IMG/VR virus record: IMGVR_UViG_2713896774_000001
Location: 1 to 29,255 of that record
Reading direction: 5' to 3' (one strand)
Length of the DNA: 29,255 nucleotides
Origin: a virus
Lineage: Duplodnaviria > Heunggongvirae > Uroviricota > Caudoviricetes
Shown piece after piece: positions 25,713-29,255 of the stretch (position 1 is the first letter of the stretch; each line of letters starts with the position of its first letter). The notes beneath the pieces were generated by a model. It had not been told where the DNA came from. It did no database searches and worked only from the letters and a program-made list of their open reading frames with translations. The translations under genes and the position numbers were made by a program.

Positions 25713-26912
25713 ATGGCTTTGAACCTCGACACGCTGGGGCTATCGGCAACGGTAACCGCCCAGGGGATTAGTGCGCCTGATTACCAGACAATCCTAGATA
25801 CACTGACCAGCTATTTCAGGCAGATTTACGGTAGTGATGCCTACCTCGAACCAGACAGCAAAGACGGGCAGATGGTCGCGCTGGTGGCTCTTGCCGTGCA
25901 TGACGCTAACAACACCGCTATCGAGATTTACAACTCGTTTTCACCGATGACAGCGCAGGCCGCAGCGCTTAGCAGCAATGTGAAAATTAACGGGATCACG
26001 CGAAAAGTAGCGACAAACTCTACTGCTGACCTTCTGTTAACCGGTACGGCAGGCACGACTATCACGAATGGCTCCGCACGGGATAAAAACGGCATTATCT
26101 GGAATTTTCCCGCGAGTGTAGCGATCGGCGTTGACGGTACTGTGCTGGTGACGGCCACATGTGCGAATAGCGGTTCGGTTGCGGCGATGGCCGGGACTAT
26201 CACCACCATTAACACACCGACTCGCGGATGGGTATCAGTCACCAACCCAGCAGCGGCTACGGTTGGTTCTCCGGCCGAGACAGACGCGGAGCTTCGCATC
26301 CGGCAGGGCCAGAGCGTCGCGCTACCGTCAATCACCCCGTTTGAAGGTGTCGACGGTGCTATTGCTAATGTTAATGGCGTGACACGTCACAAACTGTACG
26401 AGAATGACACTGGCTCGACAGATAGCAACGGGCTGCCGCCTCATTCCATTTCTGCGATTGTTGACGGCGGTGATGTGACAGAAATCGCCCAGACTATCAG
26501 GGGCAATAAAGGGCAGGGAACAGCAACTTACGGGAAAACTTCTGTCACGGTGCCAGATACTTACGGTAATCCCCACGTCATTAACTTTTCGCGCTCGACC
26601 GACGTACCGATTTTCGTAGCCATTACCCTGAAAGTTTTTACCGGGTATACCTCTCAAATCGGCGAGCAGATCAAACAGGCTGTTGCCGATTATATTAATG
26701 GCCTGACAATTGGCGACGACGTGCTGCTGAGCCGTATTTATTCCCCGGCAAACCTTGGCGTGGTGAGCGGCGGAAATGCCCGCTATTACGATATTACCGA
26801 CCTGCTGATCGGTAAGTCATCAGGCAGCGTATCGGCATCAAACATTGATATTGCCTATGATGCTTCGGCGTCCTGTAGCACCGCGAATATCAGTATCACG
26901 GTGACCTCATGA
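25713..26912 (+). CDS. Baseplate J-like protein (Mu gp47 / P2 gpJ family)
   Basis: 399-aa ORF of the size and position of baseplate J-family proteins; translationally coupled to both neighbours. Confidence 0.65.
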   Translation: MALNLDTLGLSATVTAQGISAPDYQTILDTLTSYFRQIYGSDAYLEPDSKDGQMVALVALAVHDANNTAIEIYNSFSPMTAQAAALSSNVKINGITRKVATNSTADLLLTGTAGTTITNGSARDKNGIIWNFPASVAIGVDGTVLVTATCANSGSVAAMAGTITTINTPTRGWVSVTNPAAATVGSPAETDAELRIRQGQSVALPSITPFEGVDGAIANVNGVTRHKLYENDTGSTDSNGLPPHSISAIVDGGDVTEIAQTIRGNKGQGTATYGKTSVTVPDTYGNPHVINFSRSTDVPIFVAITLKVFTGYTSQIGEQIKQAVADYINGLTIGDDVLLSRIYSPANLGVVSGGNARYYDITDLLIGKSSGSVSASNIDIAYDASASCSTANISITVTS

Positions 26913-27589
26913 GCAAATACACCGAACTGATCACTAACTACCACGCTACCAAGCCACTCTTTTTTGACCATATAGATCTGAGCACCCGCCCGCTGATTGA
27001 TGTGTCCAGCACTATGTCAGGGCTTGTAACAGCCTTCGATATCGATACGGCGGTCGGTGTGCAGCTCGACATCCTCGGTCTGTGGATCGGACGCAGTCGC
27101 ATAGTCAGCCAGCCAATTAGCGGAGTTTATTTCAGCTGGGACACTGACGGGCTTGGATATGACCAGGGCATCTGGCAGGGGCCATATGATCCTGATTCTG
27201 GCTATACGACGCTGAGTGATGAGACGTACCGCATCATTCTGAAAGCGAAAATCGCTATCAACAACTGGGACGGCCGGAACGATTCTCTGCCTCCCATCCT
27301 TGACGCTGCGACTGCTGGCTCAGGCCTCAGGATGCAAATTGTCGACAACCAGGACATGACGATATCGGTCTGGGTATTCCCCGAGACTGATATTTCTGAT
27401 GTGTCTCTTGAACTGATTGCCGCTATCAAACAGGGCTATCTCACCGTTAAAGCCGCCGGCGTATGGGTCGGTGATGTTGAAACGCCTTCGGTAGAAGCAC
27501 CATCCGAGGGCTCTAAATTCTTTGGGTTTGATATGGATAACGAATACATCGGTGGGTTCGATGTTGGAGCATGGGGGACAATACTCTAA
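26909..27589 (+). CDS. Baseplate or tail protein (Mu gp48 / P2 gpI-like)
   Basis: 226-aa ORF between the baseplate-J-like gene and the tail fibre gene. Confidence 0.55.
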   Translation: MSKYTELITNYHATKPLFFDHIDLSTRPLIDVSSTMSGLVTAFDIDTAVGVQLDILGLWIGRSRIVSQPISGVYFSWDTDGLGYDQGIWQGPYDPDSGYTTLSDETYRIILKAKIAINNWDGRNDSLPPILDAATAGSGLRMQIVDNQDMTISVWVFPETDISDVSLELIAAIKQGYLTVKAAGVWVGDVETPSVEAPSEGSKFFGFDMDNEYIGGFDVGAWGTIL

Positions 27590-28830
27590 TGGCAACAAAC
27601 AACTTTAAACCGTTCGCGACAGCGGCAAATGCTAACGTGACGGCCCAGGCTGACTGGGAATCGCTTCCGGCTCTGCTTTCTGGCTTCACGGCTGGCAAAG
27701 CTTCCAGTGCTCAGGTAAACAAAGCCATTCGACAGGCCAGCTTTATAGCTGCAGCGCTGGCGCAGTACACCGCCAACAAAAGCGGTCTGGATGTACTTGA
27801 TGATGGTGACCTGAACGGGTTTATCGCCAAAATGTCCGCCGCGTTCGGTAAGGATTTCCAGGCGCTTGACGCCACGCTGACGGCATTGGCAGGGCTCACA
27901 ACCGGTGCAAATAAACTCCCGTATTTCACTGGAACTGATACCGCATCGCAGACTGATTTAACTTCTGTCGGTCGAGATATTATCGGGAAAGGTACTATTG
28001 CTGACATTCTCACATACCTTGGAATGACAGACATTCTGAATGATAAACAGGATAAAAATGATAATCTGACATCATTGTCGAGCTTAACAGGAATACCGGA
28101 TGGGCTGGCATTTTTTACAGGTGCTGGAACAATGGATATGACAGCGCTGACTCAAAATGGTAGGGAAATTTTAAGTAAAAAAAACGTATCGGAAACTCTA
28201 CAATATTTAACACTTGGTGATGGAACAGGAAGGCTTTTGGGGGTTCAGGTATTTGGATCATCTGGGACTTATCACAAATCACCTGGTGTAACGAAAATTA
28301 TAGTGGAAGCCGTTGGCGGTGGTGGTGCCAGTGGCAATTTATCAGCAACAGCCTCAAATAACTGTGGTGTAAGTGCTGCCGGTTCCAACGGGGCATATGC
28401 TAAAGCATTTTTTTATCAGTCTATACCTGAATCCGTGCAAGTAACTATTGGAAGCGGTGGTGTAGCAGGAACAGGACCAGGAGGCTCTGGAGGTGACGGC
28501 GGGAATACAAGCTTTGGTGATTTGCTTGTATGCCCGGGAGGAAGGGGATCAACTCAAGTTCAGCAGGTACCTCCATTTTCAGGGGGAAGTGCAACAGAAG
28601 CACCAATTCCTACAGGGCAAGGGATTCTGTTCCATTCAGTTTCACGATCAAATTTATGTGGGGCACTTGGACTTGGTGATGATCAGGCGATTGGCGTTGA
28701 AAGTATAACCACTACTATGCTTGGGACATACGGTATTGGCGGGACAGGTAAATACAATAAGGCGTCATCAGGCCCAGCGACAGGAAATAATGGAAATCAG
28801 GGATATATTCTTGTGTGGGAGTATCAGTAA
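27589..28830 (+). CDS. Tail fibre protein with an AT-rich, Gly-rich C-terminal (receptor-binding) region
   Basis: Conserved-looking N-terminus (MATNNFKPFATAANANVTAQADWESLPALLSGF) and Gly-rich distal part (GGGGASGN..., GSGGVAGTGPGGSGGDGGN). Base composition shifts to AT-rich from about 27960. Confidence 0.75.
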   Translation: MATNNFKPFATAANANVTAQADWESLPALLSGFTAGKASSAQVNKAIRQASFIAAALAQYTANKSGLDVLDDGDLNGFIAKMSAAFGKDFQALDATLTALAGLTTGANKLPYFTGTDTASQTDLTSVGRDIIGKGTIADILTYLGMTDILNDKQDKNDNLTSLSSLTGIPDGLAFFTGAGTMDMTALTQNGREILSKKNVSETLQYLTLGDGTGRLLGVQVFGSSGTYHKSPGVTKIIVEAVGGGGASGNLSATASNNCGVSAAGSNGAYAKAFFYQSIPESVQVTIGSGGVAGTGPGGSGGDGGNTSFGDLLVCPGGRGSTQVQQVPPFSGGSATEAPIPTGQGILFHSVSRSNLCGALGLGDDQAIGVESITTTMLGTYGIGGTGKYNKASSGPATGNNGNQGYILVWEYQ

Positions 28831-29036
28831 TGAGCGATATTTATGCAGTCGTACAAAATGGTGTCGTTACAAATCTTGTTGTATGGGATGGTAAGTCAGA
28901 GTTTAAGCCAGAAAAAGCGGATATAGTTAAATGTGTTGGAGGTGTCGGTATCGGCTGGTTATATGATGGTGAAAAATTCATTAAGCCTTCCTTAAAACAA
29001 GACGACGTTATACTTACTGAGGGGAGAGCCAGTTAA
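28830..29036 (+). CDS. Small protein downstream of the tail fibre (possible fibre chaperone; uncertain)
   Basis: 68-aa ORF from ATG 28830, overlapping the fibre stop (TAATG), AT-rich like the fibre 3' half, followed by a terminator. Confidence 0.4.
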   Translation: MSDIYAVVQNGVVTNLVVWDGKSEFKPEKADIVKCVGGVGIGWLYDGEKFIKPSLKQDDVILTEGRAS

Positions 29037-29049
29037 TACACAGAGTGCC

Positions 29050-29082
29050 GGAGGGGGCAAACACCCTCCCATCTTTTAATTT
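29050..29082 (+). terminator. Intrinsic terminator ending the tail fibre operon
   Basis: GGAGGG-GGCAAACA-CCCTCC hairpin followed by ATCTTTTAATTT. Confidence 0.55.
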
Positions 29083-29223
29083 CTGCATAAAAAACAAATA
29101 AATATGTAATAACTTAACGTTTCTATAACTATAGTTAGTAATAAAATAATGATGACTTTTTGATGCGTTTAGAGATAAGATAATTACACATTTTTCTTCG
29201 AGTTTCTGAGGAGTTAAGTTGAA

Positions 29224-29255
29224 ATGAAGCCCTGCAAAGCCCTGCAAAGCCCTGC
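29224..29255 (+). repeat. Start of a downstream gene or locus: ATG followed by three tandem copies of a 10-bp unit (A)AAGCCCTGC, truncated by the window edge
   Basis: GAGGAG ribosome-binding site 11 nt upstream of ATG 29224, then GAAGCCCTGC-AAAGCCCTGC-AAAGCCCTGC to the last base. Preceded by a very AT-rich intergenic region (29083..29223). Confidence 0.5.

Follow-up and report, generated by a model that had tools for sequence, protein, structure and literature searches.

A glycine-rich tail-fibre tip and the small gene behind it as a probable portable host-recognition cassette in an Escherichia coli prophage

Was the receptor-binding end of a prophage tail fibre acquired as one unit with the small open reading frame (ORF) that follows it? 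The question is raised by the late (head, tail and baseplate) region of an E. coli prophage, recorded as IMGVR_UViG_2713896774_000001, whose full length of 29,255 nucleotides (nt) is called the window here. An original prediction, made from the letters alone, had placed a shift to AT-rich DNA at about position 27960 of the window, within the tail-fibre gene, and had proposed that the receptor-binding part and the small ORF arrived together by recombination. Exchange of fibre tips is the main route by which temperate phages change their host range, and engineered fibres are used in phage therapy and in tailocins. We conclude, with a probability of about 0.78, that positions 28023..28988 form a portable host-recognition cassette that was joined by recombination to the native N-terminus of the fibre, and whose small partner gene encodes a one-domain chaperone. 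The cassette would consist of a neck repeat, a receptor-binding domain of the TNF (tumour necrosis factor)-like/glycine-rich type seen in Pam3 gp24, and a translationally coupled gene for 68 amino acids (aa) (Table 1).

The guanine-plus-cytosine (GC) content, which was 0.545 for the structural genes (7501-27588) and 0.525 for the initial 419 nt of the fibre gene (27589-28007, N-module), fell to 0.447 in the fibre C-module (28023-28830), to 0.391 in the small ORF (28830-29036) and to 0.352 downstream of it. The predicted contrast between GC-rich upstream genes plus fibre N-terminus and an AT-rich stretch reaching through the small ORF to a hairpin at 29050 was thus borne out. Over 27960-29036 the GC content was 0.435, a value that is as low in only 1.2% of equal-length segments of the 29-kb window. 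The maximum-likelihood change point lay at about 27909, on a flat plateau (27880-28010) that includes 27960. Position 27960 is therefore a fair estimate for the shift in composition, but not for the start of the cassette, as the recombination junction lies about 60 nt further downstream, at 28022/28023. A low GC content could also reflect local amino-acid content or selection in a fibre that is neither foreign nor mosaic, and the recovery to 0.47-0.50 at 28300-28700, within the glycine-rich domain, would fit such an explanation. This recovery is partial and is due to the many GGN glycine codons. Third codon positions had a GC content (GC3) of 0.283 (fibre C-module) and 0.304 (small ORF), compared with 0.514 (fibre N-module), 0.573 (wedge gene) and 0.575 (baseplate J gene). 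GC3 thus stayed low throughout despite the recovery, which places the shift at the codon level and not in the amino-acid content. With sharp homology breakpoints and several unrelated N-modules also observed directly, as described below, an origin of the low GC content without foreign DNA is scarcely credible. The AT-rich codon usage would be foreign and would have come along with the cassette.

To compare the two parts of the fibre, 26900..29255 was aligned by megablast to 5426 complete E. coli genomes. Matches were found in 563 records, none of which covered 80% of the query and most of which stopped at 28022. The N-module and the wedge gene upstream of it were matched in about 560 E. coli prophage records, with 90-96% identity over the N-module. 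Identity to relatives that share the backbone was 94% as far as 28022, after which the sequences were unrelated, and past this point most of the matching records carried fibre ends annotated otherwise, as glycine-rich, gp53-like or 'phage tail protein'. The similarity of the N-module to phages SEN34 (Salmonella) and YP3 (Yersinia), at about 80% identity, covered fibre nt 1-455 and stopped at 28022-28025, and P1-like S fibre genes matched only at 27901-27981, which encodes a conserved …KLPYFTG… repeat. The C-part and the small ORF were found in only 10 of the 5426 genomes, as a block from 28008 or 28023 to 28988 at 83-99% identity. The N- and C-parts, aligned separately, accordingly had different nearest relatives, which excludes the alternative that both halves share their closest relatives.

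These 10 genomes represented three other prophage contexts: Mu/e14-like prophages with an StfP-type N-terminus (L004-L006), a distant SEN34-like prophage (L002) whose backbone is only 72.5% identical, and a DUF2612-type prophage (L001). By direct blastn, the block extended from 28008 to 28988 or 29010 at 96.5-98.9% identity (83% in L006). L001 matched over 28090..29255 at 97.3%, and the right arm shared with it continued through the esterase and integrase genes to about 3.3 kb in total. C-modules 98-100% identical to that of the window were fused to at least six unrelated N-termini, always directly after an …LG codon pair, resulting in fibres of 413, 382, 366, 374, 398 and 404 aa. The minimal shared block, 28023..28988, starts with the first fibre codon past LG and reaches codon 53 of the small ORF, so that its right edge falls within the 3′ end of that ORF. 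This shared block, the different N-modules and the linkage described below support the proposal that the receptor-binding part and the small ORF were acquired jointly by recombination. When 50,697 GenBank phage records were searched by tblastn, there was no match to the small ORF and only a 53-aa neck match to the fibre C-module, in a Pseudomonas phage. The cassette is therefore in no sequenced isolate phage of that collection.

The left junction was exactly between two tandem fibre repeat units of about 57 aa each, which are 39% identical (E 6e-11). The join would have been made here, where the constant part of the fibre meets the variable one, with the …LG codon pair on the core of a former Pin/Cin-type crossover site. 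Four relatives with the same N-module (L003, L092, L093 and L094) carried a full 26-bp site, TTCTCACATACCTTGGTTTGGGAGAA, at the homologous position, a quasi-palindrome that reads TTCTCACATACC-TT-GGTTTGGGAGAA. In L094, TTGGTTTGGGAGAAG recurs 1.8 kb downstream as a perfect inverted copy, adjoining a gene for a serine 'recombinase family protein', and two opposed sets of fibre C-module and Tfa genes were located between the two sites. The repeats of these relatives are the same as the repeats TTGGTTTGGGAGAAGG that flank the e14 P segment, which is inverted by Pin recombinases (PMC12529663). The hix, gix and cix sequences matched the 26-mer of the window poorly (13-17 of 26 positions) and were set aside; the pix-type repeat of e14 is the relevant comparison. 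The window has kept TTCTCACATACC-TT-, which is followed by the cassette sequence GGAATGACAGAC in place of the right half, and the StfP-type contexts read CTCTCGAAAACC-TG-GGAATGACAGAC. In two unrelated N-modules, the crossover core is therefore immediately followed by the start of the cassette.

The right 'half-site' of the cassette matched at only 7 of 12 positions. A search of the window that allowed up to 3-4 mismatches showed no second crossover site, the window contained no invertase gene, and there was one fixed C-module with no alternative inverted one, also past the window end in L086 and L087. The fibre in the window is thus a fixed, non-switching derivative of a switchable fibre. The join may have been made either by an invertase acting at a quasi-site or by homologous exchange in the short conserved half-site.

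The fibre tip gave a match to Pfam family PF21722 (Gly_rich_2) at 31.6 bits, above the gathering cut-off of 24.3, over aa 233-411 of a 419-aa ORF. That ORF begins at the mechanically assigned ATG at 27571. The start is most likely the ATG at 27589, which overlaps the stop codon of the wedge gene (TAATG) and gives a product identical to database protein P0012. The predicted fold of the tip was a TNF-like β-sandwich running on into a glycine-rich lattice. The small ORF lies immediately 3′ of the fibre gene and is co-transcribed with it, with no terminator between the fibre stop and 29050. Its product belongs to PHROG 14370, annotated as 'unknown function'. It had no Pfam or NCBIfam match and no Caudo_TAP match even at an E value of 1 or less, and a hidden Markov model (HMM) of the Tfa C-domain found nothing anywhere in the window. 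NCBIfam also had no model for the fibre or the wedge gene, and no literature was found under the names PF21722, Gly_rich_2 or phrog_14370. A confident fold prediction showed an N-terminal β-sandwich like that of the fibre-specific N-domain of Tfa-type chaperones, so the 68-aa protein looks, in its modelled fold, like a stand-alone homologue of the fibre-binding N-domain of these chaperones. Profile searches against the sequences in the PDB did not reach Pam3 gp24 or gp25, which were reached only by comparing folds.

A word-indexed protein search with the small ORF returned only close E. coli copies, and an exhaustive HMMER search returned 309 cluster representatives. Among the best 150 of these 309, 89 were 80 aa or shorter and 23 carried the Tfa C-domain, as judged by the HMM built here. 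According to Pfam, longer members of the family have Caudo_TAP in forms of about 130 aa and DUF4376 in forms of about 180 aa. The longer forms raise the possibility that a full-length Tfa gene lost Caudo_TAP by deletion and left the small ORF behind as a dead remnant, whose linkage to the fibre is historical and not functional. In agreement with this, the shared block ends at codon 53, at a boundary between domain and linker, the tails vary with context (59 versus 68 aa), and the window holds no other Tfa C-domain. However, stand-alone forms dominate, both among the 150 representatives and at the linked viral loci described next (40 of 70), and they occur in diverse phages. The core motif is conserved, the ratio of nonsynonymous to synonymous substitution rates (dN/dS) was about 0.2 for the small ORF, from few changes, and the gene has a start that overlaps the fibre stop, a Shine-Dalgarno sequence and a confidently predicted fold. 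Decay into a remnant is on this evidence quite unlikely, and we prefer to read the small ORF as a functional partner gene.

The linkage between small ORF and fibre tip was evaluated at 79 viral loci, which had been retrieved in a scan of viral contigs by the small-ORF motif alone. A glycine-rich fibre ended at the start of the small gene at 70 of the 73 loci with an evaluable upstream ORF, and in 17 of 19 clusters at 60% identity. At the three exceptional loci the upstream fibre was visibly glycine-rich, below the threshold. The first HMM for the glycine domain missed 13 upstream fibres, and with Pfam and an iterated search nearly all of them proved to be glycine-rich. The partner was a stand-alone protein at 40 of the 70 linked loci and was fused to a Tfa C-domain at the other 30. 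The invertible relatives provided a natural control. In L092 and L093, a glycine-rich C-module was followed by a protein with a small-ORF-type N-domain and a Tfa C-domain, whereas in L003 and L094 a non-glycine C-module was followed by a Tfa protein with the C-domain but without the small-ORF-type N-domain. In Citrobacter, a fibre tip that is 47% identical was directly followed by a 65-aa homologue of the small ORF. The dN/dS ratio was about 0.17 for the fibre C-module, in a set that leaves out L001. Taken together, the linkage counts, the control, the Citrobacter homologue and the dN/dS ratios suggest, from a near-universal linkage in sequence data, that the small protein is a fibre-type-specific partner of the glycine-rich tip, which would explain why tip and small ORF move together.

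Mosaicism was also seen inside the cassette. When L006:4993-5963 was compared with 28018..28988 of the window, the glycine-rich fibre domain of L006 was strongly diverged (synonymous divergence, dS, 0.69), and its small ORF was near-identical to that of the window (dS 0.13). One and the same partner thus serves tips that have diverged.

How the partner might act is suggested by the structure of gp24, the tail fibre of cyanophage Pam3, and its chaperone gp25. Residues 1-55 of gp25 are a β-sandwich bound laterally to the TNF-like/glycine-rich junction, and residues 64-162 are a trimerising helical domain (PMC9608196). The 68-aa protein would be the fibre-specific half of a tail-fibre assembly chaperone, and by analogy to the N-domain of gp25 its β-sandwich would clamp the side of each subunit's TNF-like/glycine-rich domains during folding. 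If clamping is specific for the tip, the small gene must travel with its fibre tip. As there is no C-terminal helical trimerisation domain, registration of the trimer would presumably be left to the N-terminal and neck parts of the fibre itself. The receptor is, by analogy, likely to be lipopolysaccharide.

Alternatively, the small protein could be a stable accessory of the mature fibre tip, such as a cap, adhesin or decoration that aids receptor recognition, instead of a transient chaperone. Some chaperones and adhesins do stay on fibres, for example gp38 of T2 and S16, which also has glycine-rich domains, and Tfa of Mu forms a stable complex with its fibre. The domain to which organisation and release of the chaperone trimer are ascribed is also missing from the 68-aa protein, whose variable C-terminal tail differs between contexts. 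In contrast, gp25 of Pam3 does not occur in virions and sits over the receptor-binding loops (PMC9608196), and the conservation of the core in L006, where the tip diverges, is unexpected for a part that contacts the receptor. We consider a stable accessory unlikely and favour an assembly chaperone.

Two extensions of this reading, taken jointly, are tentative and rather doubtful. The first is that the 55-75-aa proteins of PHROG 14370, a large family that is unannotated and has no Pfam match, are minimal chaperones that act as monomeric clamps on glycine-rich domains without a trimerising Caudo_TAP, the part that drives Tfa function in current models. The second is that tip cassettes are captured into unrelated fibres by Pin/Cin-type invertases acting at the crossover core.

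The original prediction had also pointed to a run of eight adenines (A8) in the fibre gene as a site prone to slippage. Its position, 28177..28184, was exact, but the evidence did not point to a programmed switch. A switch based on this run, by phase variation or programmed frameshifting, would turn the receptor-binding domain on or off. It is true that A8 is the only homopolymer of at least 8 nt in the window, and that one cassette copy, L008, has A7 as the only indel in a 1-kb alignment, with the fibre frameshifted exactly there. On the other hand, 1.34 A8/T8 runs are expected by chance, and at least one was present in 63 of 100 shuffled sequences. Exactly A8 and an intact ORF were found in 21 of 22 cassette copies, including one that is only 83% identical, and more distant homologues lack the Lys-Lys pair (SKEN, SKNT, SKDS). 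The shifted frame in L008 reaches a stop after 5 codons, leaving no plausible product, and this single A7 is possibly a sequencing error in a homopolymer. A switch is thus very improbable, and we read A8 as an incidental Lys-Lys run, mutable like any homopolymer.

Table 1. Features at the fibre locus, in positions of the window
Feature	Position	Strand	Details
Baseplate J	25713..26912		upstream of fibre
DUF2612/wedge-1 gene	26909..27589		upstream of fibre
Tail-fibre gene, 413 aa	27589..28830	+	PHROG tail-fibre families; protein identical to P0012
Native N-terminal module	27589..28022	+	baseplate-docking part and fibre repeat unit 1; GC 0.525
Fibre repeat unit 1	27847..28023	+	reads …LTALAGLTTGANKLPYFTG…ILTYLG
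Relic left half and core of Pin/Cin-type invertase crossover site	28007..28022	+	TTCTCACATACC-TT-GG
Exchanged distal (receptor-binding) module	28023..28830	+	GC 0.447, GC3 0.283
Fibre repeat unit 2/helical neck	28024..28218	+	
A8 tract	28177..28184	+	AGT AAA AAA AAC = S-K-K-N; helical neck, upstream of receptor-binding domain
TNF-like and glycine-rich domain	~28219..28827	+	Pfam Gly_rich_2 at 28267..28803
68-aa partner ORF	28830..29036	+	start overlaps fibre stop (TAATG, 28828-28832); GGGAG 9 nt upstream
Conserved β-sandwich domain, residues 1-53	28830..28988	+	
Tail of small ORF	28989..29036	+	variable, low-confidence
Terminator-like GC hairpin and T-run	29050..29079 (hairpin 29050-29069)	+	closes late operon, 3′ of small ORF

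Besides the baseplate J and wedge-1 genes, a spike gene and a sheath-initiator-like gene were found upstream of the fibre. Contig L088 (GCA_001309455.1) was 100% identical to 22589..29255 of the window and ended at the same final base, and contigs L086, L087 and L089 were 99.5-99.9% identical from 24595 to the window end. Beyond this end, L086 and L087 continue with a GDSL esterase, an IntS-type tyrosine integrase and then host yfdC/mlaA-like genes, which places the fibre and the small ORF at the right end of the prophage structural operon.

The GDSL/SGNH esterase gene starts at 29224 and runs past the window end (L086:6636-7385, L001:7135-7894). Its ATG is directly followed by a tandem repeat of 10 nt (AAGCCCTGCA, from 29227), and the window as well as L019, L088 and L089 all end inside this repeat. 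With 5 copies of AAGCCCTGC, the ORF of L086 and L087 is intact and 249 aa long. In E. coli WS4437A-1 (L001), 6 copies shift the upstream ATG out of frame, and the coding sequence called by PGAP is shorter. This repeat is a better candidate than A8 for a slipped-strand switch, on thin statistics, as the gene is present in only 1 of the 5426 complete genomes. In L002:6022-7041, L004:5996-7015 and L006:5996-7015, the cassette is followed by an Acyl_transf_3 (OafA/Oac-like) acyltransferase on the opposite strand, whose place is taken by the GDSL esterase in the window context. In both contexts a gene of an acyl-transfer or esterase family thus adjoins the fibre tip, and these neighbours possibly serve receptor modification by lysogenic conversion.

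PGAP annotated the fibres of L002, L004, L005 and L006 as 'StfP, partial/pseudogene', accompanied either by a gap in the annotation or by a 'glycine-rich domain-containing protein' annotated separately. Decay of the cassette fibres in L002 and L004-L006 was considered on this account and rejected, as the ORFs are continuous and intact (382 and 366 aa). The splitting of chimeric fibres by PGAP is a systematic annotation artefact.

Elsewhere in the window, a second AT-rich island (GC 0.42) was found inside the baseplate operon at 23763..24594. It contains two small ORFs with signal-peptide-like N-termini, one at 23809..24159 that belongs to PHROG 3443, of unknown function, and one at 24179..24565 with no family. 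L086, L087 and L089 do not align across this block, so that it looks, by sequence comparison, like a swapped moron. Positions 1..2000, at the left end, differed from the rest of the window in a markedly higher GC content (0.58-0.61) and in carrying an ORF of 512 aa (42..1580) on the minus strand.

That fibre tips are exchanged along with their chaperones is well established, and fibre mosaicism is textbook knowledge. The present analysis adds the exact junction positions and a connection with a relic invertase crossover site. It also assigns a widespread 60-aa family, so far unannotated, to Tfa-type chaperones specific for glycine-rich tips, as their fibre-binding domain in stand-alone form. 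The swap points are precise to the nucleotide, after …LG at 28022/28023 and at codon 53 of the partner gene. For annotation and design the locus suggests the rule that a Gly_rich_2 tip needs a small β-sandwich partner encoded directly behind it, whether or not a Caudo_TAP domain is present. A testable function can also be given to widespread 'hypothetical' phage proteins of about 60 aa. Should a protein of one domain be enough, the current view of Tfa chaperones as two-domain proteins would be refined. If capture by invertases is true, these enzymes would provide a site-specific route for the horizontal exchange of host range and not only for switching within one molecule.

In comparison with known systems, the closest structural counterpart is Pam3 gp24/gp25 (PDB 7YPX; PMC9608196). 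The partner in the window would be equivalent to the gp25 N-domain (residues 1-55) only, without the 100-aa helical trimerisation domain. The two systems have no detectable sequence similarity, and the N-terminal part of the window fibre is longer, different and built with two repeat units. With Tfa-type chaperones (Mu U/TfaMu, PDB 5YVQ; lambda Tfa; P2 G; Caudo_TAP PF02413), the window protein shares the N-terminal β-sandwich and a gene position directly 3′ of the fibre with co-transcription, but the conserved C-terminal domain that defines them is absent. Glycine-rich domains are also known from the gp38 adhesin of S16 and T2, the 'tail wing brush' gp33 of mycobacteriophage Bxb1 and ALK/LTK. 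In contrast to gp38, which is a separate adhesin attached to gp37, the glycine-rich domain in the window is the C-terminus of the fibre itself. In the fibre mosaics of P2, Mu, P1, lambda and T4 and in Alteromonas phages (PMC10579305), a receptor-binding part and its cognate chaperone are likewise swapped as a unit between unrelated backbones, and only the type of module differs. As in the e14 P/Pin, Mu G/Gin and P1 C/Cin systems, the constant N-module ends at a crossover site. The likeness to these systems extends through close relatives with the identical N-module to the full site, its inverted copy, the alternative C-modules with Tfa genes and the serine recombinase, whereas the window itself has the left half-site and core only, followed by a single fixed C-module and then by the GDSL esterase and the tyrosine integrase.
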